DNA of 64,000 nucleotides from Adineta vaga (taxonomy: Eukaryota; Animalia; Rotifera). The notes below the pieces were generated by a model. The model did no database searches. It was not told the origin of the DNA and was given only the letters and a program-made list of their open reading frames with translations. The DNA lies in the NCBI GenBank assembly GCA_021613535.1, contig CP075493.1, positions 10,141,179 to 10,205,178 of the forward strand. Reading direction: 5' to 3'. A program made the translations under genes and the position numbers. Position 1 is the stretch's first letter. The number at the start of each line of letters is the position of its first letter. Shown in pieces: positions 1,726-64,000 of the stretch.

Positions 1726-3001
1726 TGAAATTGGAAATGAAAATGCAAACTTCGTCAATCGTAATTGAAGTGGGCGAATATGTGACTTCCCTTTTAATTT
1801 ACACTTTACTTATGCAAAGTGTTATATGAGCAAATAATTCAATACCATTAGAATTTAAATTGACGTCGTTTTTTTCTTCTCAACTGAATTTATATTGTCA
1901 ATCAAAACTTTATAAATTATTCTTTGAAATTATATTTATTTGAAGAAGAAAAAATCGACGACATATTACAGTACGTTGTTTATTATTCATAGTGTCAATT
2001 AAATTCATATTATAAACATGTCAGAAGAAAAGGCGTCTATGAATTATTATTATCTTTATATTTATAATAGGTTGATTTTCAAACACTTTGACATTGTCGC
2101 TATGTTTGGGATAATTATTTAGTGACAATAAATTAATAACCTTTATGATTTTACTTTCAACAACTTGAACCAGAAATAAGAGGAAAACATATAATTTAAT
2201 AGGTTTTAAAACTGATGACATTTAAATAAAGTTCGGCATTATAATTAAAAAAGAATAGAAAAGAAAATTGCTTAATGTATTTGTTTGCAAAATATCAATA
2301 AGGTGGACAGTTGCATCACCGATAGTGAGTCTTGCATGTCGTTTGATTGTACTTTAGACAATCGACTCAATAATTGAAAGGCATGTGAATATCATTTGTG
2401 ACCGAAAAATACGAAAAGAAAAGCTTACATATTATCTCAGTTGATTTATTATAGAATATCAGAACTAATTCATGCCGCATGCTTATATTTTCTTTCTTTT
2501 GTTATTTGTGATCGATCGTATAGTAAATTATTTTATTTCTTCACAGATTTAGATTGAGTCGTCGATTTTACAGCGCTCTTTTTCGTTCCAGATTTGACTC
2601 TTGCTGATGTTGAATTCACAGGCTAAAATATCAAGAGATGATATAGACAAAAATCAAGTACTCGCATACTAAAGAAGATAGTGGTCTTGAAGTGGATGCA
2701 TTTAAGTTGTTGTCGTTTATAGTCAAACTTGTAACTGCTTGATTGAGTGCAGGAACTCTTCCCTTCTTATACAATACGGCATTACGATAAAGTATGCCAA
2801 CAATTGATTGAGATATATAATGTAATCGCCCGTATTTCATTAGAAAATCAGGATACTTTTGTCCGTATTGCTCACGAATACTTTGAATACGTGATTTATC
2901 AATTGTATAACCAGTTTTGCCTGAATCAACTAAAACATAAATTAGACCAGATTAACAGACTGAAAATATCGAACTCTGTGCATTCGTTATCTAAAAAATC
3001 A

Positions 3002-5921
3002 CTAAATTGAATATTCGATAAAACTTAACATACTAGCTGATGCAAACATTCGAGCTAATTCAATAGCTAAACTTTGACAAGTACGTTGTCGATGTCCTTC
3101 ACTATTTTGATCAACAACGACTGCATGTAAATTATAAACTTCGCCATAACTTGTTGCACCTAATGTTGAAAGATAATAATCAATAATATCTTCAGCTGAG
3201 ATGGGTGTTGGATGTATAATCTTCTTGTCGGCTGCATAATCCAATGGAGGAACGGAATATTGAAGTTTAAATTCTGAACCCCAATAAACCTTTTTGTAAA
3301 AATAAAAAAGAATAAGTTAATAAAATAAATTAGTTATTTACAAAATATTTATCGCCATCCAAATCTGAGCCAGCAATTTTATGAAAATCAGGTCCTAACA
3401 GAATTCATCGATTTTAACCAATACAATCAATATATATTTTCTACTTACGATCTCCTTTCGTACTAAAAACAATAATATCATGTAAATCATACAATTCAGG
3501 TCGATCAACTGCATTTAATACCAACATATCACCAGCATACGGGCTGAAAAGAATGTAGCCTTTCATTAGAGTAAAAAGTTTGAAAGAAAATTACCAAGGA
3601 TTTTTTGTCACAATGACTTGTCCTTCTACACATTTATATTGACGATTTGGTAATGATTTACCATTATGATCTAATACTTCGTAACGAATAAAACATGTTC
3701 CTGGTTTTAATATTGTTTCAAATGCACAACCAAACATAAATCGACATTCATTTTCTGGTAAGGGAATTTTATTTTTTAATAAATGTCTAAAGACAAAGCC
3801 ATCAGTATGACATGTATAAGTAATCAGATCTTTACTCGGAATATATATAATTGGATGGAGCGTTCTGAAACCATTGTTCTTGTAGACGAAGAAATGTTTC
3901 ATTTGGAACACCAAGATCTGACATAAGAAGAATGATTTGATTATTTAATCGTGTTGGTGCTAAATAAAAATGAAAAATAAACATATCTTATTTTCGTTGA
4001 AAATGAATAGATTCATCCTACTTGCTACACTATGCTCACAAATCTCTAAAGTCCAGTCGTTACATTCAAATTTTTTCATTGATGGTCGAATTTTAATGTA
4101 AAATTGTTCGTTGGTCGATTGAGGATCAATAATTAGAAGACCTTTACAACCTGCCATTCGAATTTGATAAGCAGATGACATTATCTTTGAAATACAAACA
4201 GAATGCTATACGAATTCATATGATATTCGAACATACTGGAATATTTTCAGTGAAACGCTTGACTAAACCTTTCGAAATAAAGCCATTGCCATCAGTGAAA
4301 CAAAATCCATTTCGTTCGATATCATCGATACATCGAACACATATTTCTCCTTTCAGAACACGTTTGTTAAATTCTTGTTCGGTTTCACAATAAACCAATT
4401 TAATCTACAGATAGTTTTTAAAACTTTTCTTCGATCTTATTATTTTAACTTACGCCCGTTGGAGAACTCTTACTAAACCATAGACCTAATCTTGCAGCAT
4501 ACGTTCCTAGATTGTCAATTTGATTTAATTCACCTAGTTGTGATCGTTTTTGATGGACATCATTCAATGTTGATGTTTTCATAAACCAAAAAACATGTTC
4601 TTTAATCTGTGAATTGGATGATCCAAATAAATGAAAACGATCTCGACCAATTTCAATACCAGCTCGAAATATCTGTCGAAAATTATCAGTATTATTATTG
4701 AGATATTGATTAGGAGGATCAGGTTTTAAGTAAACAAGACAAAAATTATCAGCACCACCAAATGATTCATGACGCATAGCACGATGGCCTATGGTTTCTT
4801 CTTTTGGCATTATACAGAGACGCGTTGGCGTTATATGAACAACACCAACACGAAACAATTTACTTTTGTTCTAAAGCAATAGAAGATTTGATGAAATATC
4901 GATATTTATTATTGATTTACTTTTATTGCGATTTTATTAAATTCATCTCGATTGAATATAGTTGTCAAATCGAACCAATGACATGCTTGAAGTTCACGAA
5001 AAGCTTGTAGTGCTAATTGATAGAAACGTTCTTCATTCTCTTCAGCTAAGTCAACTAGTGTGCTTTGAAGTTGATCATTCATGAGATACTTATCATCAAA
5101 TACATATCCTAATGAATGAAGCATTGCCATAGCATAACTAGTTCCACGAGTTGGATACCAATTAAATTCAATTTTATCCCATAATTTACGTACATTTTGT
5201 TCGATAGATATCTTTGTATACAAGATTTTACACCGATGTACATGTCGCAAATAATTGAGAAACTGATCAGCAACAGATTTAGGAGAAATACGTATAAGAA
5301 TTTCACTACAAAGACTTATTGATTTGATAAGTGGTTGATCACCATATAATCTAAATAGAGAGAGATGAACTGAATGTCTGTTACAAATGTTCAATTAAAA
5401 TACTTTGAACTTTGCATATTATCGATCATTTGTACTTCTTTAATCAACTTATTCATGTTTATTATGATCTCTGCACGAGTATCGTAGTCTATGACGAAGA
5501 TATGTTTCTCAACATGACATATAGATAAAGTGAAACAAATCGTCGTTGTCACAGTATTTTGACATTTTAGCTGCAGTGTATTTTGATCAGAAAGTGTCAT
5601 TGTCCATTGAGGTGCTCCAATGTAGGATATGTCATGAATAAGAAACTTTGACGTTGAGAGTAGAGAGCCGAATGATACACGAATATCTTCGCCAATATTA
5701 GTGTTAAATTGTATAAATTTATGTCTGCGATTGGATGGTAAATTGATTGAAAGCCAAATTTGTGGATTTTGATGAATTAACGAAGAGAATTTCAAATGGA
5801 TGTCATTAGCCTGTGTTATTGAACATGAAAAAGAAATCTCTTTTTTATTCTTAATATATCTTGTAGATAATCCAATAGATGATGAAATTGAATCAACTAC
5901 ATTAGCTGGTACATTATACAA
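3002..5921 (-). CDS. Eukaryotic cellular RNA-dependent RNA polymerase (RdRP, RDR/EGO-1/QDE-1 family); multi-exon, about 850-900 aa.
   Basis: Minus-strand exons contain the diagnostic RdRP block ...GQVIVTKNP(C/W)... followed, after short introns, by PYAGDMLVLNAVDRPELYDLHDIIVFSTKGD and LLGPDFHKIAGSDLDGD (revcomp of about 3370-3420). The catalytic DLDGD motif is present. Flanking exons (4445-4858, 4909-5394, 5391-5921, 3002-3244) are collinear on the same strand. Confidence 0.75.
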
Positions 5922-6826
5922 TATACAATCGATAGAATCTCTAAGTAAAACAAGAAATTAAAATTAAACGACGGAACCAGATTGGATCACCAATCCGCAA
6001 AATCACTTACTTTAATTTACTCATGCTTTGCCCGTCGTAAAAATATTGTGCTCTATGGATGTCAGACAACCATTGTTTCAAAAGCAAAATAGAGAAAGAA
6101 CGAAACTACGTTTGACTTTTACACATGTATTTCTTTCTTTCTTTCCCTCACTTGTTGAGTTTCTTGATAAAAGAAAAATATTCAACGATAATGATTGCAC
6201 AATCACTGGGAAATACTCAATAAATTCTTTGTTACAACTTTGCTAGTATTTAAAGAGTATCCATTACAACTCAATTGGTATCTGAAACATTCGGTCAGTT
6301 AGTATACACTACATGAATCACTTTTACAATCTCAAATCATAAAATTTATTTAACTTTTCAAATAACAGGTAAACTTTTGTTCATCCAATAGATATGTGTA
6401 TTTTTTTTCTCATATAAATAAGTAAAATAAATCAAAGAACAAGCACAACTCAATAGAATATGAATATAACATAGATAATAAAGAAGAAACAACAACAGAA
6501 AAAAAAATACAAAAAAAAAGAAGTTAATTTTCTAATGATCATGATAACAATGATAGTATTCAAAACATTTGCATAAAATTCAAAATAAATCTAAAGTATG
6601 ATTTTGTTCTTTTCGAAAATGTTCTCTTTGTTCACAAATAATGTATAGAGATTTCAATGTTCGACTAGGAAATTCTGTTAGAATAATAAATGATTAAAAG
6701 ATATATGGAATGAAATTCGTAGCACACAGAAAATATGTTTAAAATGCAATAGAGAAGTAAAAAATGAAACAGAGAGTACACGAGTATCGAATGTGTGACT
6801 AAAAATTAAATCATTTCAATAAAATG

Positions 6827-27675: not shown

Positions 27676-30600
27676 ATGTCTCCATTAAGTGGCAAGACAT
27701 TTGTACTTGAGCTTGGTCGAGAAATTCGTTTTAAAGCTAAACAAGAACTAATTAACTATTTACGTGAACAAAATGCGCAGATTTCATATATATTAACTGC
27801 TAGCGTAGGTTTTTCTCTCTCGACATATCTGAATCATTATCGATTGAAACTTATTTTTACTCTAGACGGATTATGTTTTGGTTTCGAATGATATTGATAC
27901 ATATAAAACTCGTCGAGCAAAACAACTCGGCATACCATTGGTTAATGTTGATTATATTCATGAATGTCGTAAATCAGAAGTTGGAAAAGAACCATCTGAT
28001 ATTAAACGATTTATTGTGACATCAGCAGAAGATAAAGAAAACTTCTCAAAAACTGGTACTATACCAGTTTCAGGTTAATATACGAAGGTTTCTTTAGAAA
28101 ACTTATATTAATACTTCTTCTTCTTTTGCATAGGAGGAGGAAGTTCGTCAGGTAGTGTAATAAAACCTGTTAAATATGATGTATCAAAAATCAAAATATG
28201 GAATTCTGATGATGTGGAATTACCATGTTTCGATGAAATTACACATGCTGAAATTGGCAAATGGGCAATCTTCAAAGTAAAAATCTTGAGATAATCAATT
28301 GACTCTATTCATTTTCTTGCCGTTTTCAATAGGAAACAAACGATCATTCAGATATTCATTTTGCGCTTGAATTACAAATCATTTCCGAAGAATATTATCA
28401 TCAACAAACAAATAATGATTATCAATTTCGATTTCGTTATGAAAAACAAACAATTATCAGTTCGAAAGGTAAAACTTCATTAATTCAATATGCCTTCAGT
28501 CATGATATTAATGAATTACATCAATTATTTGCATCGTACTATTATCGTATTGCAACAATGCCAAGAATAACTCGAATTCGAGAATTATTACCCGATAAAT
28601 TAGGTTCCAAATTATTATTACGTGTAAGTTACTTTTCTTTCTTTTGCCATAGAAAAATATATTCTTCAATTTTAGTCATTATTTCTTCATCGAATTGATA
28701 CACAAATGCTCGATGATAATGTTTGTCAATTGATTGAATCACTTTGGATTGAATCGATTGGAGATTTAAATAAGATTCTTTCTGTTCAACCTGAATCGAT
28801 TGCATTGAAAACAGTATGACAATAGAAAAACAAATGTATTTGAATGTTTATTGTTTTTTTTTCTCAAATATTCTTTTAGATTATCGAGGCTGAAGCTGCT
28901 TTACTTGAAATCAAATCTGGTGGTGAATCAGCATCGGAAGCAGAAACTCGTTTCTATTCACTGATTCCTCATCAATATTCATATCTTATCGATCTTATAA
29001 CAAATCGACGTGCCTTAATAGATAAAATTGATTTATGTCAGGTATATCTTCTTTGCTTGTTGATCATTTCATTGGCTAAATTTTCAAAATTTAGATGTTA
29101 CGTGATATGCTTACGATCAATGAATTAACGAATTGGAATATTAAAGCATCAATTGAAGCAAAATATCGAGCATTAAAATGTCATATTGAAAGTATCGATA
29201 GAGATAGCCATGAATACTCGACCATTAATAATATGATTCATTCATCAACAGATTCGTACGTATTTTTGAATGATTAGAACTCTTTTGAAAAGTATTTGAG
29301 ATTCTTATAGGAATGAAAAAGTCATTGTTCATCACATCTATAGTGTTGCAAAACAAATAGATGCATTGAATTTTCGCTCAACACTTTTTAATCAGAAACA
29401 ACTTTTTCATGGATCGAAATATAATAATTTTCTTGGTATTCTCTCACGGTAAATCAATTTAATAAAAGTTCTTTCCAAACATTCATATTTTTTTTCTTGT
29501 TATTTAGTGGTTTAATGCTACCAAAACTAGTTGTAGATGATCTAGGAGTGGCACGTACTGATTTTGGATGTTTGGGATATGGAATTTACTTTTCGGATTC
29601 TGTTTCAACATCTTTAAAATATACAACATCAAGTACAACTTGCCCTGGTCGACGCCTATTATGTATATCTCAAGTAGCATTAGGAGAATCAGCAAAATAT
29701 TATTCATATGCAACGAATTTAACTCAACCACCAGAAAATTGCCATAGTACACATGGAGTAAAGAAGACCAATGAAAATAATTCGAAATTTTTCGTAAGAA
29801 ATTTCCTAGTTTTTATTTCGATAAATTGAAATTATTTAGGATGATGAATATGTAATCTATAATCTTGATCAACAACGTTTACTCTACATTGTTGAAGTTT
29901 CATGGCAACCACATGATGTTATTGATCAACCATTGAAACTATTACCAATTATTCGTGATCATTCAACAAAACAGTTAACGAGTTCGAAAAACGAAAGTAA
30001 TTGCAAAATTTTACAATTCACTCTTCATTAATATAAATCTTTAACTGCATTTTTAGTGGATATACCATCATCTATCGAAGATGAAGTAATTCAAGTAGCA
30101 GAACAGGATTATGGTTTAGTTTGTCCATCATCAGGTCAATTAGTGCCATTGAAAGCATTTCATATTCGCGCTCAACTTGTTGATGTAACTGGTGAAGTAT
30201 GTTTAATTACATTGCTCCTTCTTTCAATCAATATTATCTATAAATATTTGTTAGGTAGTACTTTATCAAGTATATCATAATACAAGTTCAGTTCCAATCG
30301 AAGCTAAATATGTGTTTCCATTGGAAGAAAATTGTTCTGTGTGTGGTTTCGAAGCTCATATAAACAATAAAGTTATTAAGGGTGTTGTAAAAGAAAAAGA
30401 ACAAGCGAAACGTGAATATCGTGAAGCAATCGAAAAAGGTCATGGTGCATATTTAATGCATCAAGAACAACCTGAAGTTTTCAGTGTATCTGTCGGTAAT
30501 TTACCAGCAAATTGTGAAGTGATTATCAAGATTACTTATGTTGCAGAATTATCAATTGAAAATAATGATATTATCTTTCGTTTTCCAGCAAAAGTAGCTT

Positions 30601-32560
30601 CATGGCAATCGAAACAAGCTTTAGAAGCAAAAGATCAAACAATTCTTCCATCGATTAATCTTGAACAAGATAATTCGTCAATGAAATCCGTTGAATTTAG
30701 TTTGAAAACATCTATTCGTATGCCATACGAAATTAGTAAATTATTCTCTCCGACGCATCGTCTTCGACGGAAAGTAACCGATTGTTTAGCCATGATTGAA
30801 CTCGTTGATAATGTTCTATTAGAAAAAGATTTTATTCTTTCTATAACATTAAAAAGTATAAATTTACCACGAATGTTAAATGAAACATATGTTGTCTCGG
30901 ATGAAAACAATAATATCGAATTAAATGATGAACAATCTCAAGCATGTATGTTAACATTTTATCCGAAATTTGAAATGACAAATAATATCAATGAATTTGT
31001 GGAAGTCGTTTTTATTATTGATGTATCAAATTCAATGGATGGTAATCATGTTCAACAAGCAAAACAATTAGCACATTTATTTTTAACAAATATGAACAAT
31101 AATGATGGAAATATTTATTTTAATATTGTTACCTTTGGATCAGGTAAGATCGGATGAAGTGAGTTTGATTAATTTTCTTTTCGTTCTTTTAGATAATGAT
31201 GAATGTTTTCCTATCTCATCACCAAATACAAAAGAAAATATTGATAAAGCAAAGCATTTCATTTTGGTTTGTATTATCCTATCAGTTCTTTTGTTCTTGA
31301 AGAAAATCTTCTCTTTTGTAAATTATAGCATTCACTTGATCATCGTGGTAATACTGATCTTTTCTCTGTTCTTCGTCAATATTCTCTCCTTCCATCTCCA
31401 TGTAAACTTGGTCGACAATTTATTCTTCTTTCTGATGGACATATCAATGATTTGAATTCAATTATAACTTTACTAGAAAATCAACCATCTATGGCACATG
31501 ATCGATTCTTTACATGTTCAATTAGTGATACATCAAATAAACATCAATTAAAACAATTAACTAATGGAGCACATGGTGGCGGTTTAGCAACTGTATTTGA
31601 TTCAAACTATCGTTCAAAATGGAAATCGAAAGTTCTTCTCATTCTTGAACATATTCGTCAACCATGTGTAACAAATATATCAATTGATTGGCATGGAAAT
31701 CTTGATAATCAACAAGTTAAATTTACCAATCAAGCACCAAAAATGATTCGATCCTTATTTAATGGTATGCGTTTAACTGTCTATCGATTTATTCAAAATT
31801 GTCATAAAGCAACATTGACAGCAATGATTAATGATCAAGAATTTGTTACAACTGTATTCAGTAATAAAATGACAGAAACACGAGGAACAATTTTACATTG
31901 TTTAACGGCACGTGCAATTATTCATGATTATGAAAATGGTATATTGCATGTAGATGAAAGTGAAAATGAACTGATGAAAAAACAATATAAACAAGATTTA
32001 ATTGACTTGAGTATAAAATATTCTGTTGTAAGTTCATTTACAAGCTTTGTGGCTATTGAAGAACGTGATGGACAAGCACTTGAGCCAGGTAGAGTTTTAA
32101 TTTCAGATTAAAATAAGATTGAAAAACTTTTCTTTCTTTTTCTTTTCTTTTCTTTTCTTTTCTTTATTAGGTGTTCGCTTACTGGATGTGATGCTTGAAC
32201 ATGATATTGATTTATTGCCATATATTGGTTGGGATGGTGATCGATCACAGATTCAAATAATTAAAGAAAAATTACTGGATGCAAAACATTTATTTGATAG
32301 TGCATCGATATCAAATAAGATTCAACTAACAACTGAATATGAAAAACTTTGTCAAAATATATCTTATCGTTCTGGTGGCGATGCAAAATATGATTTAATG
32401 TTGGCAATTATTGAAACGTACAGAACGATGCTAAAAGAAAATAATAAAGCATTAGAATTAGAAGAAAAAATGCAGCTTGGTAAAATTGAATTGTTTTTTA
32501 TTATGTATTTAGTCGAATTGATTTTGTATTCATAGAACTATTGACTGAAATAACAAATGC
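27676..32560 (+). CDS. Vault poly(ADP-ribose) polymerase (PARP4/vPARP)-like gene: BRCT - PARP catalytic - VIT - vWA; 15 exons or more.
   Basis: Exons 27676-28078: BRCT-like (GKTFVLELG...; ...GIPLVNVDYIHEC). Exons 29300-29830: PARP catalytic core with the H-Y-E triad (LFHGSKYNNFLGILSRG; GYGIYFSDSVSTSLKY; DDEYVIYNLDQQRLLYIVEV). Exon 30312-30600: VIT domain (KGVVKEKEQAKREYREAIEKGHGAYLMHQEQPEVFSVSVGNLPANCEVIIKITYVAEL). Exons 30990-31700: vWA (EVVFIIDVSNSMDG...IVTFGSG...QFILLSDGHINDLN). This domain order is specific to PARP4 among PARPs. Confidence 0.75.
32140..32166. repeat. (CTTTT)n pentanucleotide microsatellite inside a PARP4-like intron
   Basis: cttttcttttcttttcttttctttt read directly. Confidence 0.85.
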
Positions 32561-32945
32561 AACGGCTGATGAAAGAAAGATATTGGAAAAACGTTTGGAA
32601 GAAGTTAACGCACGTATTAATACAGCTGAATCGTTAGTTAAATTTGTAATAGGAGACAAATTTTAGAAATTTTGATTCTTGTTTTAGGGAAAGCCAAGAC
32701 GAAGGTGCAAGTAGCGAGGACATCGATAGTTCTCAAGATTCCTGCGACGAAGAAGTAAACTGTAGTAATATTCTTCTTCGGACTGTAAGTTATTTATCAA
32801 AGTATTGAAAAAACTTTCTGAAACTAAATAACTGTCATTTCTTTCTATGAAAAGTGTTCAATGGGTGGTGACGATTCATGTATGGATAGTGCATTTGCAA
32901 ATATTATTCTAAATACTTTGTGTTGTTGTATATTTTATAGATTCA

Positions 32946-35900
32946 ATGGTGGATTGCGATATAGACTATCCTCTTGATTTTGAAGTTTCCTCTACAGCTT
33001 CTAAGCCAGCTATGAATCCATATAAATCAAAAGGCACAGCCATTGCTTTAAGTTCGTCTCATGATGAATCTGAAGGATCTGATGATATGGGTTTTGGCTT
33101 ATTTGATGACGGCGTACCTGCATCATATTCACCAGTTGTATCGAACAAATTGCGCTCATCAATGATAGACGATAAGAAAGATACAGAAAAAATTGCGGCG
33201 GCTGCAAAGATACCTCAAATGCTCGAAACTATGAGAGAATACGAAGATGATGAAGACGAAGCGGACGATTTTGGTTTTGATTTGTTTGGCGATTATTCTT
33301 CGTCATCACCAGCTGCTACAGTGAATCTTATAGAAAAAGAGGAACATAGTAAACGAAGCACGAGTTTAGCGAAAAGACAATCACCACCAAACGTACAAGT
33401 AACTCCCATCAGAGATTTACTTGAAGAAACTAAAGATCTTCTTAAATCTAATTTAAATAAGATTTTAGATAGAAGTAAGTATACTTTGAAACACATTTTT
33501 CTTTATTTATATTTGTAAATTTATTATTATATTCAATAATAGGTGACATGCTTTCTTCTCTGTCCATAAACGATGAACGAGCCAGTCCAAAGAAACGCAA
33601 GGAAGTATCAAAAAAGGAATCTAAACCAGTACCTTCTGATTCAGCTGTTTTTTCAAACTTGTCACATACATCCCATACGTCTCAAATACCAACAACACAA
33701 AGCTTCAGTTTTTCTAATCTACATTCACAACCACAACAGCAGCAGCAGCAACATCTGAAACAGCAAGAATCTTCGATAGATGGTGATAAGTGCCTCATAA
33801 CGCCGGCATTGTTTGATTTTACAGGCAGCAGTCTTTCGGCGAACAGTGCAGATTTCATATCTGCAACGGCATCCGCACCCTCATTTTCATTTTCGAACAC
33901 TGCGTTCAACAACTATTATCAGAGTGATGTATTGCCAGACTTTGGTATTTCAACTCTGCCTCACCCTAGCATGCCATCCTTTACGTTTGGTGCGCCTCAA
34001 TTTAACAACAATACGTGCAGTGATCCATTCTCTACATCGGCTGGCACTCTTTCGGCAAGTACAAATATGGGCTTTAATACTGGACCACCACCACCACCTC
34101 CTCCTATGGCTGCTGGATTTTTTGGTAGCACACCACCTAGTTCCAATTCTTTGTTTCAACCAACCACTGCTAGTGGCATGTCATACAATCCTCTGTTGCC
34201 AGATGCGATGCTTCAACAAGTACTGCTACCAGCACAACCTCCTCCTCCTATGGCTGCTGGTTTCTTTGGCAGTACTATGTCGCCAGGTGCGGTTTTTCAA
34301 CAACTACCACTACCACCACCACCACCACCTCCTCCTCCTATGGCTGCTGGTTTCTTTGGCAGCACTACATCTAGTTCCAATTCTTTTTATCAACCAACTA
34401 TTGCTACTGGCATGTCATATAGTCATATGCCACCAGGTGCTATGCCTCAACAAGTACTACTACCACCACCACCACCACCACCTCTTCCTGCTCCTCCACG
34501 ACTTCAATCAATAAAAACAATAGCAAATGAATCGGGTTTCAAAATGTCATTAGCTGATGACGAGGAATCATCTCCGATGTATTCTGCGTTACAGCATAAA
34601 CAACGCTCGAGCATGGTGTCACGAGATAGAGGTCGTGGAGTAGTTTTCGGAGGAAGATGCGCAACTGATGGAGCTGAAGTATTAAGTGGGAAAAAATCAG
34701 AGATCATTAAAGAAATATCTGTAAATGATTGTGCTCGATATTGTGACGTATGTGTAGACAAAATAACATTTAAATCTTATACAAAATACTTTTCTTATTG
34801 TAGACACGTTCCGACGAAGCCTCTAATGCACCAGTAAAATCTGCAACATCAGACTATACAGAAGACTACAATATATTTAGTAAAAAGAAATCGAGTTCCA
34901 AACGGTACGAATTTTAGAAAGACAAAATACCATTCATGTTCACTAAAATGGAGCTATTAAATTTATTTTAGTGCACCCGAGAAGAAACCAGTGACCAAAT
35001 ATGTTGACGATTGTCTGTACGATCTTTTACTACTTGATGTTACACCACTTGGTTTAGGTATTGAAGATGTGAATGGTGAAATGTGTACAATTATTGAACG
35101 CAATCGTACAATTCCAACGAAATCAAACGTTTATTCTATATTTACCAATGCTTATGCTTATCAGACAACAGCTACTATACGTATTTTTCATGGTCAACAT
35201 AAATTAACAAAATATAATGTTAGTAAAATACTTACACAATTGAAATCGAATTGAAATAATTTTATTTTGTTTTAGATATTTCTTGGTGAACTTATTCTTA
35301 AAGATTTAACACCAAATTTTGCTTCACAAACATTACAAATATCAATTGTTATGGATGTTGCTAATAGTTTCCTACAAGTCAATGCGGAAGAACCACGATC
35401 AGGAGCTAAAGCTATGATTAAAATTAGTGCATCAGATTGTAAGAATCCATTAACCAATATGTATTCAAAATAAATCGTATGTATTTAAATTTATTATAGA
35501 TTCACTTAGTGCAACCGAAATTGAACGACATATTACATATGTCGAAAGTGATCCTAACTATAGAGCTGTAGATTTTAACGATGCACAAAAAAATAATCGT
35601 CAATACAAGGTCGGTACCAGCTTTCAGAAAACAAATTCATTCTAAATCTCGATTATTTTAGTTGAAAGGTGATACAGAAAGTACGGCCATTCGTTTTACA
35701 GGTAATATAGAAAGTTCGAACGATGTTTTCAATTTTGATCGACCAAAAACTATTCAATTAATTTCAACAACTCTAAATGAAATTAAAAAAATACAATTAC
35801 CAAATGGATCGTTCGATATCAATGAAGATTTTACTAAATTATTTTCAATTCCGATGAAAAATTTTGATGAACTTAAAAAATACTTATGTTCACAAGGTTT

Positions 35901-36327
35901 TAATTCATTTGGTAAGAATGAATAAAAAATGATAAAATAATCTAGAAGAAGAATCTTTTCTTTTAGCATTAAATGTACAACAAGATATTATACATCTCAT
36001 TGCAACAGGTATTGTTCTTCTACAATTGTTATTACAAGTACCCGTATCGGATAGAAAAGGATATTTAGTTCCATTCGATAGTGAACAATTAAAAGTAAGA
36101 AACGAAATTCTGTTGTTTGTTTTTTCTTTCGATTGATTGATTTGATTTCTTTTCAGACGATTTTTCATTGTCATTTACCGAAAGTTTTGATAGAAAATGT
36201 TAATAAAGCAATTGATTTTTATGAACAAAAACGTTTACGCTGTGGAATATATTGTGAACAATTAGAATTGAAATATTCATCATGGGAAAAATTGATTCAA
36301 TACGGAATTTTTCAAATCGAAAATTGA
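32946..36327 (+). CDS. Composite ORF region downstream of, and possibly continuous with, the PARP4-like gene: acidic ribosomal-stalk-P-like motifs, polyproline repeats, HSP70 substrate-binding-domain-like module, conserved C-terminal region.
   Basis: Exon 32946-33476 contains DESEGSDDMGFGLFDDG and DDEDEADDFGFDLFGD. Exon 33541-34790 has three repeats of P(7-11)MAAGFFGST. Exons 34975-35240 / 35279-35450 / 35500-35610 encode LLLLDVTPLGLGIEDVNGEMCTIIERNRTIPTKSNVYSIFT...IRIFHGQ...IFLGELILKDLTP...LQISIVMDVANSFLQVNA...YSLSATEIERHITYVESD, collinear with the HSP70 SBD-beta and start of the lid (LLLDVTPLSLGIET.GGVMT.LI.RNTTIPTK...VYEGER...LLG.FEL.GIPPAP...I.V.FDID.NGIL.V.A...LSKEEIERMV.EAE). All junctions were hand-checked and are in phase. 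Terminal exons 35650-35925, 35960-36100 and 36150-36327 end ...LIQYGIFQIEN*. Confidence 0.5.
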
Positions 36328-36983: not shown

Positions 36984-37526
36984 ATGCAAGCTACCGCCGG
37001 TATCCAAAAACTTAAAGGTACTTGGGAATACGTTGATGGTGAACATTTCGATGATTACATGAAAGAAATCGGTGTCGGTTTCGCTCTTCGTCAATCAGCT
37101 AAATTAATTAAACCAAAATTGATCATTCAAGAAAATGGAGGTAAATGGTCACTCAAAAGTGAATCAACCCTTAAGACAGCTTCATATGAATTTACACCTG
37201 GCACTGAATTCGATGAAACTCGTCTCGATGGTGAAAACTGTAAAGTTAGTTCAACTAAAATCTTGGAAAAACTTATCTTTTTCATCTGTCTGTTTATTTA
37301 GTCCATAATCAAATTTGAAAATGATAAATGGGTACACACAATGCGCGATAAAAATGGTAAAGAATCGACAGTTACACGATGGGTTGATGATCTAGGTCAA
37401 CATCAAGTTGTAAGAGAAAAAAAACGATTTTTTTTCCTTCTGAAAGTTGAACTTTATTTTTTCCTCTTATAGGACATGAAAGCTGGCAGTGTTACAGCTC
37501 GCCGTTGGTACAAACGTGTTGATTAA
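36984..37526 (+). CDS. Cytosolic fatty-acid-binding protein (FABP / iLBP lipocalin family); 3 exons, about 137 aa.
   Basis: MQATAGIQKLKGTWEYVDGEHFDDYMKEIGVGFALRQSAKLIKPKLIIQENGGKWSLKSESTLKTASYEFTPGTEFDETRLDGENCKV | SIIKFENDKWVHTMRDKNGKESTVTRWVDDLGQHQV | DMKAGSVTARRWYKRVD*. The G-x-W signature, beta-barrel periodicity and ...R.Y.R C-terminus are typical of FABPs. GT/AG introns at 37250-37299 and 37393-37472. Confidence 0.75.
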
Positions 37527-38199
37527 ATCTGTTTTTAATCAACATCATCAACATCATTATCACACGCGTTGCAGAACAACTAGAAGATATCTTTCTATCT
37601 TTTATCATTATTGATTTGCTTTTGGTTTTTTGATCATATTCGTTTTTTATACAACCGTAAAAAAAGAAAGTAGCAACAGATGTTTTCCTTCTTTTCTGTT
37701 GTGATCTTTTCTTTTCTTTTGTATGCGTGTGTGTGTAGTTGGTTTTTGAAAAAAAAACTATAATAAACACAAAAAAAGCTATAAAATGAAATATTTGTTA
37801 ACTGCTTCGAATGTTATTTGAAACATGGAGAATGAAAAACATGATACTATTTGCGTTATTCACTATGGAAAGGGTACGTATCTTTCTATAAATAAGTTAC
37901 CAAATACAAACAGGCATTTCAACTAATCGCGAAATTAAATCACATCCAACGTCTGCATATATCAACATATTTTTCCTATCATATTCCATGCTAAAAAAAA
38001 CTTTTTTTATTATTAAATTTCATCAAATAATTATATATCATAAATAAGTGTACATGTTCACTTCACTCATCGATTTTGAAACTAATTCGAAAGAATTCTC
38101 CTATTACCATGTTTTTTTTTCTTATACTGTTGAAATCGATACGTCAATACAAAAACACGATGAAACTTTCTGCTCTCTCTCACTATTTTTTTTATGTCA

Positions 38200-48660: not shown

Positions 48661-51600
48661 TTACGTGGATGAATCTTGAGTACTAATTACATTTAACAAA
48701 GTAAGTGGTAAGTCATGTAAAGTAAGTTTATTATCAATTACAACATCGATAGTACCTGTTAAAGATAAAGGAATCTTGCCAGCTAATAGAGGTGTTAGAA
48801 GAGACACCATTGTTGCTAATTTTGCTGTAATTTTAACATCAATGTACTCTGTTAAAACTTCGGCAAAAGGACCAATATCGATACGCTGATTATCAGTAAC
48901 AGTGCCAACTTGTTTATCTTCGTTTAATTCAGCACCATAATCTGCTCTGACATTAATTCGTGTCACAGCTAATGTTGAACTAAATGGGTTTTTCAATACA
49001 AGACGTGTCGAAAGTGTTTTGACAGTACCAAGTGGAATACCAAGTATTTGTAAAGCGCTTAGTTTTTTCAAAAGAACTTCTCGAACAAGTGTTCTGTCAC
49101 CATAAAGGCCAGGAGCTGTTGCCTGAATCTGTAAACCAGCAATAGCTGTCGATAATAGAGGAACATTTGTTCCTACTGAATTATTTGGTAATATTCCATG
49201 TAATTCTACATCATTATCTATTCCACATATCATACGAGAAATAAATTGTCGAGCTACATCAGTATTTTTAGGTGTGATAGTAAATGTTCCTGTTGCATTT
49301 AATATTGTACTATTCCCTTTAGGATCAAGATAAAATGGATCGATAATAACTAAACCAAGAGAAGTTCCACTAGTTTTATCACGTAAGTCAAGCGAAAGAC
49401 GACCACCATCAAGAATATTAACAACCGATGGATTAGTCATTTTTGTTGTTATATGAAGTGCTAGTTCATTGGACGAGATTGCTCCTGTTAGATCAATCTC
49501 ATCAATATGTAAAAGTCCATTAGCAAATCGATCATAACCCGTCAAAATAAGAGTATCACTTACTGGAATATCCGTTAAAGTAATATTACCAATTCGAACT
49601 TCTGCTAATGCTGTAGCTAAACCATTAATTGTTACTGATACACTTTTTTTCAAAACAAGATCAGCAGCAAATGCTTGAAATGATGTTCTATCTAATACAA
49701 TAAGTTCTTGTTTAAAAAAATTCATCGAAAGCTCATTAGTTGTTTGATTATGTTGAACAGGCAAATCATGAAGTATCATTTGACCCATATTAGGTCCATT
49801 ATTAAAACGCATCATATAATCAATACTTGTTGTTAAGGCTTTGAATGTCATGTGAACATTTGATGGTAATTCAAATAAAACAGATAATTCACCTGTCACA
49901 TAAACTCTACTAACGTTTGCTCGATCAAATTCAATACCAAAATCTAATACTTCAACTCGACGAATTAATTGTGTTTGTATGCCATCAAGATCTGCTTCTA
50001 TAGAAAGACCACTGATCGTTAAATCCATACCAGTAGGATTTTCACTTGTAGATAAATCATGAAACAAGGTTACTGATTGTATTTGATTATTGAGATATGC
50101 AGAAAAAAAATTACCAACAACAGGTAAATCACTTTCTTCTCTTGGAACAAGTAGACTAAAACGAAGAATAATTATAATCAAATAAAAATATTCATTGGTA
50201 ATTATACAAACCCGTAAAGCATCATATTATTACTGCCTGGTGTCAGAGCTAGGATATCAATTGGTACATGACCAATAACTGTTCCAGTATCAGTATCAGC
50301 CATTAAAAGTTCAAATTTTTCCAGTCGAACATCAGTCACACCAGAATTTCCAATCGTTACATTGATAGAAATTCGAAGAGCATTATTAGTTTCTCCGTCG
50401 ACTGTGATGGCATGCACACGCACATCACTAAGACCTTCAAGACCAACTAACGAAACATCATTCGAAATAGAAATACCATTACTATTCAAAGCACCAAGAG
50501 CGAATGAACCAGTAATAGATGCGATGCCAACAACACGAAAATGAATCTGATCAGTTTTATTTGCATTGATGAAATTTTGAGCAAACTTCTCATAAGCTTT
50601 TCCCGTACCACTAATTAATAAATATCTGTCATTGAATGCTGATTCAAATGTAATACTATCTATTTGTTTTACTGCTGCTTCAGAAACATTTAACATGCCA
50701 ACAGGATTATTATCATAATAAAGAAAAACACCCATGTCCATTGTTTGAATTTGAAGTGGAGATTGTTGGCCAAGAGGTGAATTGATTTTAAAAGTAATCG
50801 ATGCTGATAATTTGACTTTCTTTTCAGTTGCTGATGGAATAAGTGACATCGAATTGAATATCAATGAAGGAATTAATTGCTCATCAAAAGTTGGCATTGG
50901 AACAATCAATGAGAGACCTTTCATACCATTGGCAAGTAAAGAATACGAAGTAGCATTTGGTCCAGCTACTGCACCGACTCGACTCGTTTTACCTATGAGA
51001 AAATTTTCGATAACATCAGAAAGAGCTTTATATGCTTCAGGAGATTTTGATTGTAATTCACCAGAAAACGGTACCGCATTTGCACCAGAATGTAAAGTTA
51101 TATTACTATCAATCGAATTAACATAACCAATCGTTTGATCATTATAACGTAAAGAAAAGTGTAATGCACCTATACGAAAAGAAAATGAGGTTAGAGAAAC
51201 AAATTAGCGAAAGATTTCTTTTACCAAGATCAATGTTAAATATTGATGGATTACCAATTTCGATAATAATATCCACAAAAATATGTTTTGCAGTCGATCG
51301 ACGAAGATCAACTGTTTTAATACTTACATTTTGAAGACCATTTAAAGCATTGAGTGTTACTTTTTTATTAAATGGAATATTCGAATAAGTAGGCATTACG
51401 GTCGATATCGGTTGAATCGATGCTTTTGCTGTTAAATGCCATACAACACTGGATTCAAATATAAGCGAACGAGTGAAATTATTAAAAGCTCCAAGATTAG
51501 ATACAACAAATGGCGAATCAATGGGAATGATAGTCGGTTGATCACCATCTCCAGTAATCTTGATCGATTGTTCATTTCTTACAACTCCAACATCATCAAC

Positions 51601-52152
51601 ATTGATGATAAGTGGTGAAAGAATTGTTGCTGGAATTGATCCAGTACGAGATAATTCTAATTCAGCTCGTAGACGAAAACTATCATTTTTAATATCTTCA
51701 ATATTAATCGATCGAAAAGATAATTCAGTTTTTTCAATCGTTGAACGAACAATCGCTGGAACAATAACATAGAGTACAATTATAATGCTAAGAAGAATTA
51801 TAAGTAAAGCAATAGCAATACATAAAAGAATAAATAATTTTCGACGCATTTGAAAACCTTCAAAACGACCACACATTGTACAAAGTGTTACTTTTTTCGA
51901 TGATGATTTTATCGGTCTATCCAGCCAATCTATTTCGTCGTCTTCATTAGATGATGATACTAATTCTTGTTTGTCATTAGATGTCTTCAAATTAGTTTTT
52001 ACATAATCCTCGGCAAAGTCTCCAGTAAAATCACCAGCATTGCTACTAGATGTTTTAATGTAAGCTACAGACTGATCTGAAGAATCAGATTTTTTTTTAC
52101 CCATTGATAAATTTATATCTGAAACGAAAGAAATAGTAGAGAATATTTTCAT
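48661..52152 (-). CDS. Very large (about 1,100 aa) single-pass type-II membrane protein built of repeated beta-rich modules; family uncertain (LEA_2 / DUF3712-like architecture).
   Basis: Three collinear exons (51142-52152, 50202-50924, 48661-50181) separated by about 20-220 bp introns. N-terminal cytosolic region, one TM (LFILLCIAIALLIILLSIIIVLYVIVPAIV), then reiterated about 100-aa segments ending in patterns like ...N.S.F.I.L.......G... (e.g. ...IEIGNPSIFNIDLG; ...ISINVTIGNSGVTDVRLEKFEL; ...ITTKMTNPSVVNILDGGRLSLDL). Confidence 0.45.
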
Positions 52153-53791
52153 TAATTAAGCTCTAAATCCAGAAATTGTTTATCGTATGAAATGTATAGT
52201 TTTATAAAAGCCGACAAAGTGTAAAAGAGCAATCTCTTTTCCTCATAATAATATTTAAAATTGTTTTTATTTTATACGCAGTTTTACAGTTATCTGTTTT
52301 AGTTTCTCGTCAGTTCGTTTTCAATCTGCTTCCTAAAGAATCTGCGAATATTGATAACTTTGTTTTTTTTGCCTTGTCTTTATCAACTGTAGATAAAGAA
52401 TAGATGAATTTCATTGATGAAGATGTCGTTACATTTTGAAAAATATTTTAAATGTAAGTGTAGTATTGATATTCGTTTGTTCGTTCGTACTTATATTTAA
52501 AGTTTGCGGACTTATATTTCAGGTATCAACAGAGCACGCCGTAAGTTTTCATTGGCTCCTCTAAATATATTTACATGAATATATACAACAGATTTTTCTT
52601 AGACCATCAATCAGATGACATAGAAATCGAGTAAACCGATAAGGAATACAAAAATGCTTTTAATCAATCGCCAAAAATAATACTTTAATCTCTATATTTG
52701 TATTTTCATCACTTGTAAAGATATACAGGATAAAATGATCACTCCTGAATTATTTTCATTATGTTTCAATCGAAAAAGGTCATACTATCTTCTCAGTAGG
52801 ATCATTCGATTCCCAGATAGAATATCTAACGAAATATCATATATCTAAGCTTGTTTTCTTTCAAACGTAATAAATCTATTAATAATGTCATCTGGTAGCA
52901 TGATATACATTCCATCGAGTAATAAGTTATGAAAATCATGCTAGATTAACGAATGCATCTGGAGATTATGTATATCAAAAAATGGGTGACATATTATGTT
53001 GATCTCATCAGAATTAAAAAGCATCAGTCATTTTATTAAAAATGTTCGATGATTACAAGATGCGTACTTATTATTCATTCCTGTATATCATCATTTTCTT
53101 TCCCGGTTTTGCAGTATAGAAATATTTTTCTCGATATTTTCGAAGAATATATTGGACATCATGTTCACAATACGTCGAATAATTAAACCTCAATACTAAT
53201 CGATGCTTCCTTTTTTATGTATACAAATGTATGCATGCATGTTTGCATAGAGTTTTTCAGTGCACGTTCATCAGCTAAAGACCAAAATGAATAAGAACTA
53301 TCAGTTTTGTACACATCTCTCATGATAGCTTACCACCTAGCGTATGTCGATGTACGAGTTGATATTCTTTCTCACTAATCTGCGTTTTATCTCGTTCTTT
53401 GGAGTGTATCTGCTTATTATTATTATGTTTTTTCACGTGTTTTTGATAAGCCACACCCATATAGTGCCATATATTTCACTCAATAGACATCTCATGTAAA
53501 TAAATTATATTTTTCGACAAATTTTTTAGTTGCATTTTTCTGAATTTTGTTTTTTGGTTGCACTTGAAATTTAAACGTCCTCTCAACATCGTTGACTATT
53601 TCATATTTTTTTCTTTCACAACTACGACTACTTATTTATAGTAACAGCAAAAGAAAGAAGCGGAACGGCAAGAAAAGAAAAGCAACACACTCCAAATAAA
53701 CATATACACTCTAAGCACATGATAGTTATATAACGCAGCATAACAAAATAAATTCATAAGCATTAGTGCAAAGTTATTTTATTAAAATAAT

Positions 53792-62066: not shown

Positions 62067-63653
62067 TTAATGTTGTTGCACATATTTATCAATTAGCATT
62101 TTCAAATTTTTATTCGAGTAAATTTGTGTGTTTTTTATCGAAATATTCATCATTGGACTTGTTTGTTTTTTTGTAATCCATTCTTCTATAGCTTTTCGTT
62201 CATACGTATAACCATCGCATACACATACTGGATCTGTCATTAATTCATGTGTTATTGGACATAAGAATTCATTTGGTATCGTTGCTTGATCAGTATCAGC
62301 TGATTTGGAATTTTGTTCGTTTTTTTTCGTTGAAATTTGTTGTACAAATAGTTTATGTCTCAATGAGCTAAGTTCATTCAATAACTTTTCATTTCTATTG
62401 AATAAATCTAATAATTCACTATCAGATTTTGACAATAAATCATTTCCTGTTAAATTTAACTTTGTTTTGACATTAAATTGTTCGAGCCATTGATGTACCA
62501 TTTCATTAGTCCATTGATCAATTGGATGTATTTTAAATTGATAATTTTGTGATTTCTTCTCTTCTCTATCTTCGATATCATTTTCATTATCACAATAATC
62601 GATTTTCCATATATTCACCATACGATCATTCGAACCTGATGCTAGATATTGGCCATCTAATGAAAAAGAACAACATGTAACATAACGCGCATGTGCATCA
62701 AATTGATATACAAGATGACCAGTTTCATAATTCCAAATAACAATCGTTTTATCACCTGAACCACTTGCTAAATAATGTTTAATACCAAATGAAACACACA
62801 TAACAGCACACGAATGCTTTTTTAAAGTTCGAATATGTGTTAGTTGATGTTTCGATGATGATGAGCAATGCCAAATTTTTACACAATTATCATTACCACC
62901 CGACGCAATCAGATAGGGTGGATGATGATGATGATGATGATGACTTTCAGTGGATGAAGGAGAAAGAACATCAACACATGTTACACCTAAATCATGTGCT
63001 TCACGTTCAAAATGAATATGACCAGTAAATGAAGAATCAACAGTCCATAGTTTAAGATCACCATAAAATGAACCAGATATAAGTAAATTTGAAAAGAATC
63101 GCAAGGCTACAATCGATGCCGAATGACCAACAAAAGTTTTAACTGGTCGCGAAGATATAGCAGTTATATCCCATAAATTTATTAATTCATCATCACCAGC
63201 TAAAAATCAAATATTGAATTCTTTTTCTTTCGTATGTGACTAAAAAATAAATAGTTAACCTGTTGCTAATAGTACACCATCCAATGAAAATTGACAAACA
63301 CGAATGGGAGAACCACTATCATGTTTATATTCTTTTAATACACTGATTGTTGTTAAATCCCATACAAGGCAAGTTCCATCAGTGGAAACAGATGCCATAT
63401 ATTTTGTTGTTGAATCATTTTTCTCATTGAGAATAGGTGAAAAAGCAAGGCAATGTACTTGATATGTATGTCGCGTTAGTGTTGTTGATGATTGATCATT
63501 TAAATTCCATAGTCGAACTGTTTTATCAGATGAACATGAAGCAAGTAATGGTGAAACTGAATGAGTCGGTGAAAATATAACAGTATTTACATCCGATGTA
63601 TGTCCACGTAATGTCTGAACTAATCGAATGGATACTGGCGAAACGTCACTCAT
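62067..63653 (-). CDS. WD40-repeat + C-terminal U-box protein (WDSUB1-like E3 ubiquitin ligase); 2 exons (63653..63255, about 63196..62067).
   Basis: WD40 blades throughout (GHTSDVNTVIFSP...VRLWNL; ...GTCLVWDL; ...IVIWNYETG; ...NDRMVNIWKI). C-terminal U-box EFLCPITHELMTDPVCVCDGYTYERKAIEEWI. An internal His7 run HHHHHHHPPY is encoded by (ATG)n/(CAT)n at about 62923-62945. Confidence 0.7.
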
Positions 63654-64000
63654 GATTTAAAACAATTGATAAAGAGAAAGTTTTTTAAACGATAACTTCA
63701 AAGTCAGAACAAATAAACAGTCATGATGAATAATAATCATCTACGAACGATATGATGACAAACAAGAATCTTTTTCTTTTTTTAGAAGTCAAACATAAGA
63801 TTGATTGAGAATGAAAGAGACCAATCAAACATATACAGCTTTTCCGAAGTAATTACTGAATAGATGCGCCCTCTTACGATGAGATAACAGGTGAAGAATA
63901 TATTTCATTTTACTGTTAATTGAAATAGTGCGATTGTGTATCATTTAAACATCATGCATCATTATCTATATTAAATTAGCTATTGTCAATAATAAGATTT

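Follow-up and report, generated by a model that had tools for sequence, protein, structure and literature searches.

The window analyzed here, a stretch of 64,000 nucleotides of the bdelloid rotifer Adineta vaga (assembly GCA_021613535.1, contig CP075493.1, positions 10,141,179 to 10,205,178), carries on its forward strand a gene that, judged from its sequence, is an orthologue of PARP4 and one of several bdelloid paralogues. The overall explanation, which we hold with good confidence, is that of one 27-exon gene encoding a vault-type PARP4 orthologue, together with the mechanism proposed below. The protein predicted from this gene combines the domains of human PARP4 with a substrate-binding domain of Hsp70 and with acidic motifs resembling the tails of ribosomal stalk proteins.

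Family membership

The initial annotation of this locus had recognized a PARP4 orthologue in the order of its BRCT, PARP, VIT and vWA domains. A Pfam-A domain search on the spliced protein recovered the four domains where that annotation had placed them, and the assignment to PARP4 is upheld: BRCT, helical domain plus ADP-ribosyltransferase fold (HD-ART), VIT and vWA are collinear with the human protein (644 bits against 74 for PARP1) and are complemented at the C-terminus by a domain homologous to the MVP-interaction domain (MVPID) of PARP4. In a search of the PDB, human PARP4 was the best match (E 5.3e-192, 644 bits), with 1049 residues collinear between query positions 212-1260 and human positions 201-1224, and the next family, PARP1/PARP2, reached 73-74 bits. 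The closest relatives are UniRef entries of Adineta and Rotaria named 'Poly [ADP-ribose] polymerase', and the nearest non-rotifer matches are proteins designated 'PARP4-like' by NCBI in a chiton, sea urchins, a nemertean, an acoel, fishes and a frog.

Human PARP4, or vault PARP, of PARP clade 5 (named 'Protein mono-ADP-ribosyltransferase PARP4' in UniProt; PDB structures 8SX1, 8SWY and 9BW6/9BW7/11JF), displays the same succession of BRCT, HD-ART, VIT-vWA, long disordered linker and C-terminal helical MVP-interaction domain. Both proteins have a threonine at the position of PARP1 K903, an acidic residue equivalent to human D545 and the DxSxS motif of the vWA domain. The rotifer protein is longer (2361 versus 1724 amino acids, aa) and, unlike its human counterpart, contains an Hsp70 substrate-binding domain (SBD) just before the MVPID, two motifs resembling ribosomal P-stalk tails and poly-Pro/GFFG linker repeats. 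The PARP4-like proteins of other invertebrates (the chiton Liolophura, the urchins Lytechinus, the nemertean Tubulanus and the acoel Convolutriloba) share the BRCT/PARP/VIT/vWA core with 35-40% identity; those of the nemertean and the acoel also carry the C-terminal 'Y..LELG..W' signature of the rotifer MVPID, and those of urchin and acoel the acidic DMG[FY]xLFD linker motif, whereas none of the four groups shows the Hsp70 (PF00012) match found in the rotifer. VWA5A and the ITIH proteins, the latter being secreted, have the VIT-vWA module in common with the rotifer protein but neither the BRCT nor the PARP catalytic module. VWA5A also possesses an MVPID-like C-terminal domain (PMC10450202).

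Some of the PARP4-like paralogues of bdelloids contain calcium-binding EF-hand domains (P0016, P0018, P0028, P0030, P0031, P0034, P0035 and FUN_024910). The EF-hand occurs together with the Hsp70 domain in models P0016, P0018, P0034 and P0035, and the other EF-hand models list no Hsp70 match.

Gene model and extent

The window is AT-rich (about 30% GC) and eukaryotic in character, with very short introns. A splice model was built by hand, joining stop-free segments from the ATG at 27676 through canonical GT-AG introns:

27676..36327, + strand: whole coding region of the PARP4-like gene, 27 exons, 2361 aa, ATG at 27676, stop codon at 36325-36327

All introns of the model are of the GT-AG type, measure 46-83 bp and leave a single uninterrupted reading frame of 7086 nt; 17 exons lie between 27676 and 32784, where the introns measure 46-82 bp and the frame is open throughout. 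Searches by tblastn with the orthologues of A. steineri (P0003) and Rotaria sordida (P0004) and with an A. vaga paralogue (P0020) gave conserved blocks confined to model exons, at 27676-32633 and 35039-36324, and no similarity between the two blocks, where the low-complexity linker lies. The interval first assigned to the gene, 27676-32560, began at the correct ATG and ended too early, within exon 16: it accounts for about 57% of the protein, coding continues for a further 3.7 kb to 36327, and the linker, the Hsp70 SBD and the vault-docking domain were all left out.

The locus is annotated in NCBI as hypothetical protein I4U23_003265 [Adineta vaga] of 2221 aa (P0001), identical to our model at 100% of positions over the best local alignment, which spans 67% of the 2361-aa model. 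Several differences weigh against the structure drawn here. I4U23_003265 omits the first part of exon 20 (33475-33940), takes a later donor near 34720 (34720-34803) and does without 18 residues, SEQLKTIFHCHLPKVLIE, of the C-terminal MVP-interaction-like domain (36095-36220). The single 27-exon mRNA is moreover a prediction in which the linker exons (32688-34904) were placed by frame continuity and splice signals alone, and in certain public Rotaria models the N-terminal and C-terminal parts of the locus are separate proteins. The least certain splice of the model is that of exon 18 (32855-32879), a micro-exon of 25 bp. At SEQLKTIFHCHLPKVLIE, the hand-built splice is the better supported of the two because orthologues retain an equivalent of this stretch, and its loss in I4U23_003265 is probably an annotation error.

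The same observations could be read as two adjacent genes, the first encoding BRCT-PARP-VIT-vWA and ending within 32.7-34.9 kb, the second encoding the Hsp70 SBD and the MVPID. This arrangement would explain why the linker exons are without homology support and why public Rotaria proteins include N-terminal-only forms of about 1350-1400 aa and C-terminal-only forms of 600-800 aa. We nevertheless find it highly improbable: the unbroken frame can be spliced throughout with canonical short introns; the two halves are joined in independent public models of Adineta and Rotaria species, with full-length proteins of 2100-2580 aa in A. vaga, A. steineri, A. ricciae and three Rotaria species; RNA-seq-informed A. 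vaga models hold PARP and Hsp70 Pfam matches in one gene; and human PARP4 is laid out alike, its MVPID following a long disordered linker (PMC10450202). That the single gene might be a decaying, non-functional copy in a degenerate tetraploid genome has a negligible probability in our estimation. Bdelloids do carry multiple copies, and the expression data discussed below concern the family rather than this one copy in particular; against a pseudogene stand the 7086-nt frame, which runs over 27 exons without stop or frameshift, and the conservation of catalytic, metal-site and domain-core residues.

A gene for a fatty-acid-binding protein (FABP) of the lipocalin type lies directly downstream, at 36985-37527 on the + strand (Pfam Lipocalin 1e-14), and the public PARP4-like model of A. 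ricciae (P0002) is fused to the same FABP. The pair shows conserved synteny along with a gene-model fusion artefact.

Catalytic module and type of ADP-ribosylation

The N-terminal part of the protein comprises the following features, all on the + strand:

27679..27967: BRCT domain, aa 2-77, crossing intron 1; Pfam BRCT 27.5 bits (cut-off 21.3)
28073..28602: region at the WGR position, aa ~113-250, assigned from position only
28618..29899: catalytic module, helical domain aa ~256-380 and ART fold aa 395-572; 8sx1_A and Pfam PARP
29408-29410: H444, catalytic triad
29587-29589: Y484, catalytic triad
29608-29610: T491, acceptor-site position
29846-29848: E555, catalytic triad

The PARP catalytic domain (aa 395-572) scored 87.3 bits with Pfam (E 1.3e-24), and the preceding PARP_reg match (aa 309-369) remained sub-threshold in Pfam-A, at 22.8 bits for a cut-off of 26.8. 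The PARP exons align with the catalytic domain of PARP4 itself, the HD-ART crystal chain 8sx1_A of the human enzyme being matched over aa 256-578 with an E value of 1.3e-57. The motifs LFH444GS, GIY484FS and DDE555YVIY contain the His-Tyr-Glu (H-Y-E) triad, and H444, Y484 and E555 align with human H438, Y477 and E547; the triad is intact, in agreement with the initial annotation. The step from this triad to a poly-ADP-ribosylating rather than a mono-ART-like enzyme is not supported: human PARP4 has the same triad yet transfers single ADP-ribose units, and T491 and D553 of the rotifer protein have their equivalents in it.

PARP4, like PARP3, retains H-Y-E yet carries out only mono-ADP-ribosylation owing to a disabled acceptor site (PMC10711553, Frigon and Pascal). 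In PARP4 this site is marked mainly by Thr484, where PARP1 has Lys903, and by the segment E544/D545; the decisive residue is a lysine in PARP1 (K903) and PARP2 (K469) and a threonine in PARP4 (PMC10711553). In the rotifer protein, T491 corresponds to human T484 at the PARP1 K903 position and D553 to human D545, and the other acceptor positions differ (C478, Y524 and F552 stand where the human enzyme has N471, K516 and E544, respectively). Since the acceptor-site changes T491 and D553 are shared with human PARP4, mono- rather than poly-ADP-ribosylation is to be expected, and a catalytically competent mono-ADP-ribosyltransferase is the best prediction for the rotifer enzyme. It weighs against this prediction that the choice between the two activities is made from few aligned residues.

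The version contained in the initial annotation, a true poly-ADP-ribose polymerase able to form chains owing to its retained triad, appears improbable. The intact H-Y-E residues speak for it, and mammalian VPARP was originally described as a poly(ADP-ribose) polymerase; both PARP3 and PARP4, on the other hand, mono-ADP-ribosylate in spite of their H-Y-E triad, and the rotifer enzyme carries T491 and D553.

Upstream of the catalytic module, the assignments are less sharp. Compared with the PDB, the BRCT domain gave generic BRCT matches and no specific match to the crystal structure of the human PARP4 BRCT domain. A WGR domain would be expected in the interval before the helical domain, and the lack of any Pfam WGR match, even at E 10, is a point against the overall explanation. 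Structural work places the WGR domain of human PARP4 between BRCT and HD, and simple profile searches also miss it there (PMC10450202); the alignment with the human protein starts at aa 212 (human 201).

ITIH-like region

Downstream of the catalytic module, again on the + strand, come:

30101..32274: ITIH-like region made of VIT and vWA, collinear with human PARP4 to residue 1224
30149-30539: VIT domain, aa 636-746; Pfam 125.3 bits, E 1.6e-36
31002-31577: vWA domain, aa 901-1055; Pfam VWA_3 50.2 bits, VWA 37.4 bits
32275..32630: helical segment, aa 1261-1360, conserved in rotifer homologues (tblastn)

The vWA domain retains the DxSxS metal-site motif as D907/S909/S911 (DVSNS), aligned with DCSSS in the human protein. 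No Pfam family was found for the helical segment of aa 1261-1360.

C-terminal domain and probable vault docking

Docking in vaults is inferred solely from the homology of the domain encoded by the last three exons:

35773..36324, + strand: C-terminal helical domain homologous to PARP4 MINT/MVPID, aa ~2217-2361, exons 25-27; profile matches

The final 145-180 residues of the rotifer protein are helical. The corresponding human domain has been delimited as MINT, residues 1562-1724 (PMC12280208), or MVPID, residues 1570-1724 (PMC10450202). Aligned by hhalign with four vertebrate PARP4 C-termini, a rotifer profile of nine sequences gave a probability of 97.5% and an E value of 5.9e-12, and an hmmsearch of the PDB with the rotifer profile returned human PARP4 1574-1698 as the sole significant match (E 2.8e-6); a phmmer search of the PDB with the C-terminal 182 aa as a single sequence gave no match. 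UniRef names C-terminal fragments of Rotaria 'PARP4 MVP-ID C-terminal domain-containing protein', and the domain contains 32 columns invariant across bdelloid genera and paralogues.

The residues of human MINT that touch MVP are S1614, K1618, Q1682 and R1689 (PMC12280208, Lodwick et al.), and here the comparison weakens the case for docking. A single one of the four, S1614, is conserved; K1618 is replaced by N, Q1682 by R and R1689 by a Q that is invariant in rotifers. On the other side of the interface, the MVP residues touching PARP4 are conserved in vertebrates only (PMC12280208). These contact residues are a property of the human interface and not of the family, so that confidence in docking is lowered and orthology is unaffected. 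Rotifer PARP4 probably docks in vaults, as its C-terminal homology suggests, and the residues of its interface with MVP may have co-evolved.

Vault components and the stress response

The initial annotation had anticipated genes for MVP and TEP1 elsewhere in the genome, and both appear in published A. vaga tables, so that the refuting condition of a genome devoid of MVP does not hold. The supplementary tables of the A. vaga radiation and desiccation transcriptome list three MVP genes, FUN_011957, FUN_013870 and FUN_000291, the first of which combines MVP repeat (PF01505, PF17794, PF17795) and shoulder (PF11978) domains and has its best match in Lottia at 2.5e-274 (PMC10809525). The presence of MVP is taken from these tables; the best 120 matches to a human MVP query were all from vertebrates. 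TEP1 is represented by FUN_026027, with TROVE, KAP P-loop, DUF4062 and WD40 domains and a log2 fold change of about 3.6 after irradiation (PMC10809525). Under the same treatment, the PARP4-like genes FUN_013713, FUN_002086 (labelled 'PARP4') and FUN_024910 reached about 4.5, 1.8 and 2.1, respectively; the first two have an Hsp70 Pfam match and the third an EF-hand (PMC10809525). The MVP genes, TEP1 and at least three PARP4-like genes are thus all upregulated by ionizing radiation (PMC10809525). That study discusses MVPs and 'PARPs' apart and not as one vault module, and assigns the PARP4-like genes to base-excision repair or even to 'HSP' (PMC10809525). Because PARP4-like, MVP and TEP1 genes all rise after ionizing radiation, the vault module is probably part of the rotifer stress response. 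One point weakens the application of these data to the present gene: the expression values hold for the family, the locus not being assignable to a particular one of FUN_002086, FUN_013713 and FUN_024910. The absence of a mitochondrial-carrier gene from its flanks is a weak argument against FUN_013713.

Within the window, neither MVP nor TEP1 was found, and a search with Rfam at gathering thresholds gave no match, hence no vault RNA there. A gene with WD40 and U-box domains at 62070-63656 on the - strand was considered for TEP1 and set aside as a generic WD40 protein, its beta-propeller Pfam matches lying below the curated cut-offs.

The probable place of the enzyme in vaults has to be weighed against a PARP4-derived paralogue that operates outside them, as a free cytosolic or nuclear ADP-ribosyltransferase of the stress response whose MVPID-like domain was re-used for another partner. 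In terms of events, such an enzyme would have arisen by gene duplication in bdelloids and by gain of the Hsp70 SBD. The replacement of three of the four human MINT contact residues, K1618 and R1689 included, speaks for such a history, as do the vertebrate-specific contact residues of MVP (PMC12280208) and the many bdelloid paralogues endowed with extra domains (Hsp70 SBD, EF-hands); the A. vaga authors, too, place these genes with the PARPs of base-excision repair (PMC10809525). Strong conservation of the C-terminal domain across bdelloids (the 32 invariant columns) runs counter to it, as do the restriction of its PDB matches to PARP4 MINT and the presence of MVP and TEP1, co-induced with PARP4-like genes, and rotifer MVP could have changed in step with the interface residues. 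On balance we regard a vault-free enzyme with this history as unlikely, though plausible in view of the interface substitutions.

Hsp70 substrate-binding domain

Between the linker and the MVPID, the vault-type PARP4 proposed here contains a segment of the Hsp70 type:

35012..35597, + strand: Hsp70 segment, aa ~2020-2175, exons 22-24, made of the linker DLLLLDV, a beta-sandwich SBD and the start of lid helix A

It matches positions 382-566 of the 599-position Pfam HSP70 profile (E 3.4e-21) and, in the PDB, the substrate-binding domain of Hsc70 (1ckr_A, E 5.8e-19). The SBD structures of Hsc70, BiP and DnaK were all retrieved with E values of about 1e-18 to 1e-19 and with similar scores (72-73 bits for cytosolic Hsp70, 70.8 for BiP, 70.5 for DnaK). 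Three parts of Hsc70/HSPA8 and DnaK can be recognized in the segment: the linker between the domains (DLLLLDV), every strand of SBD-beta, and lid helix A at its beginning ('LS..EIER'). The nucleotide-binding domain, a complete helical lid and the EEVD tail are missing from it, and a loop motif that reads FTTYSDNQPGVLIQVY in Hsp70 is FTNAYAYQTTATIRIF in the rotifer SBD. Upstream of the SBD, nothing resembling the nucleotide-binding (ATPase) domain of Hsp70 was detected. Without nucleotide-binding domain, complete lid or EEVD, an ATP-driven chaperone cycle is impossible: by its predicted domain content, the protein does not belong to the Hsp70 family, although an Hsp70 domain forms part of it. 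The SBD is strongly conserved among bdelloid paralogues, with an invariant FTNAYAYQTTA-IR-F, and this high conservation between paralogues argues for a functional domain.

Among 44 homologues, the HSP70 Pfam match was confined to proteins of Adineta and Rotaria. An exhaustive HMMER search of 1.84 billion representative proteins with a profile of SBD plus MVPID gave 40 matches at E <= 1e-30, and the nine non-Hsp70 clusters that were examined all come from bdelloids (Rotaria, Adineta and Didymodactylos, an early-branching genus). Candidate SBD fusions outside rotifers were rejected, the long matches in two stretches being tandem or fused models of canonical Hsp70 and, in one case, a plant Hsp70. 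The insertion thus looks lineage-specific and Bdelloidea-wide in the proteins compared, among which monogonont rotifers were not specifically sampled. An AlphaFold 2 (AF2) model of the A. steineri orthologue showed about nine strands and one helix followed by eight helices; it is of low confidence (alignment of 10 sequences, mean pLDDT 43, pTM 0.32), and its secondary-structure pattern alone was used.

Linker and stalk-like motifs

The region joining the PARP4 core to the Hsp70 segment contains, on the + strand:

32631..34902: low-complexity linker, aa 1361-2005 (~650 aa), probably disordered; composition in 50-aa windows
33069..33113: P-stalk-tail-like motif 1, SEGSDDMGFGLFDDG, aa 1445-1459 (DDMGFGLFD), exon 19
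33252..33293: P-stalk-tail-like motif 2, EDEADDFGFDLFGD, aa 1506-1519 (DDFGFDLFGD), exon 19
34106..34366: three repeats of poly-Pro followed by MAAGFFGST, aa 1768-1854, exon 20, read from the translation

In 50-aa composition windows, the linker is acidic, then rich in S/T/Q/N and finally rich in proline. Its two motifs resemble the conserved C-terminal peptide of the ribosomal stalk proteins P0, P1 and P2, SDDDMGFGLFD (PMC2632931), a peptide that serves as the handle for translational GTPases, for GCN2 and for toxins that inactivate ribosomes (PMC2632931, PMC11624264, PMC4267659). An acidic tail motif of about 10 residues is common to the stalk proteins and rotifer PARP4. In PARP4 it is internal to the linker and not a free C-terminus as in P0/P1/P2, and no P-protein dimerisation domain accompanies it; partner binding is therefore not guaranteed. 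The weak match to Pfam Ribosomal_60s is limited to profile positions 69-88 of 88 and scores 13.7 bits (cut-off 28.1). These sites are a motif mimic, and the protein is not a member of the P1/P2/P0 family.

The motif recurs in 13 of the 44 PARP4-like homologues, Adineta and Rotaria included, and extends to a sea urchin (EESDDDMGYDLFDEE in P0039) and an acoel (EEESDDDCGFALFDDY in P0043). It was found in none of the four vertebrate PARP4s sampled and in one of 286 control proteins, which turned out to be a PARP4-like fragment of Rotaria. Six-frame translation of the whole window yielded motif matches at these two sites only.

The repeats PPPMAAGFFGST occur within rotifer PARP4 itself. The repeat region of exon 20 looks FG-repeat-like in its translation. 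The stretch is S/T/N-rich, with SFSFS and SFTFG elements; in its place, the orthologue of A. steineri contains numerous xLFG repeats.

Other genes in the window

A large gene at 48664-52155 on the - strand encodes at least three DUF3712 domains and a weak LEA_2 match. DUF3712 is mainly a fungal family, which makes this gene a candidate for horizontal acquisition or for a desiccation-related function. A eukaryotic-type RNA-dependent RNA polymerase gene occupies about 2600-5960 on the - strand, with a Pfam RdRP match of 9e-18 on 4448-4870.

Proposed mechanism and biological meaning

The mechanism attached to the vault-type PARP4 follows from its modules. The ART fold would use NAD+ to attach single ADP-ribose units, and the C-terminal helical domain would fasten the enzyme to MVP cages on their inner wall. 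The BRCT domain, like its counterpart in human PARP4 (PMC12212138), would bind nucleic acid, and the long linker would allow the catalytic and ITIH-like modules to reach into the vault lumen. More speculatively, the SBD might recruit unfolded polypeptide segments as clients, the P-stalk-like motifs might recruit translational GTPases or GCN2, and clients might be brought to the enzyme or into the vault lumen while the animal recovers from desiccation or irradiation. Taken to its full extent, this reasoning would make invertebrate PARP4 a client-directed mono-ADP-ribosyltransferase, in which stalk mimics recruit eEF2, eEF1A or GCN2 and the bdelloid SBD recruits unfolded polypeptides, and would turn the vault into an NAD+-dependent compartment. 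We consider this wider proposal unlikely as it stands; if true, a stress-induced vault would modify translation factors or damaged proteins after desiccation or radiation.

Identification of the orthologue is in itself ordinary and adds little, PARP4-like genes being already present in published A. vaga tables and the orthologues auto-named in UniProt. A modest novelty lies in the bdelloid-specific fusion with an Hsp70 domain and in the mimic of the stalk tail: in the searchable literature, we found no discussion of the SBD insertion or of stalk-tail mimics in PARP4, and no link between the stalk motif and PARP4. The comparison also corrects a common shortcut, since an H-Y-E triad does not mean poly-ADP-ribosylation.

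To our knowledge, the function of vaults is still unknown and the standard invertebrate models are devoid of them. Tolerant to radiation and desiccation and inducing MVP, TEP1 and PARP4 paralogues, A. vaga offers a usable system for the study of vault function, in which the SBD and the stalk-tail mimics provide testable hypotheses on what PARP4 acts on.

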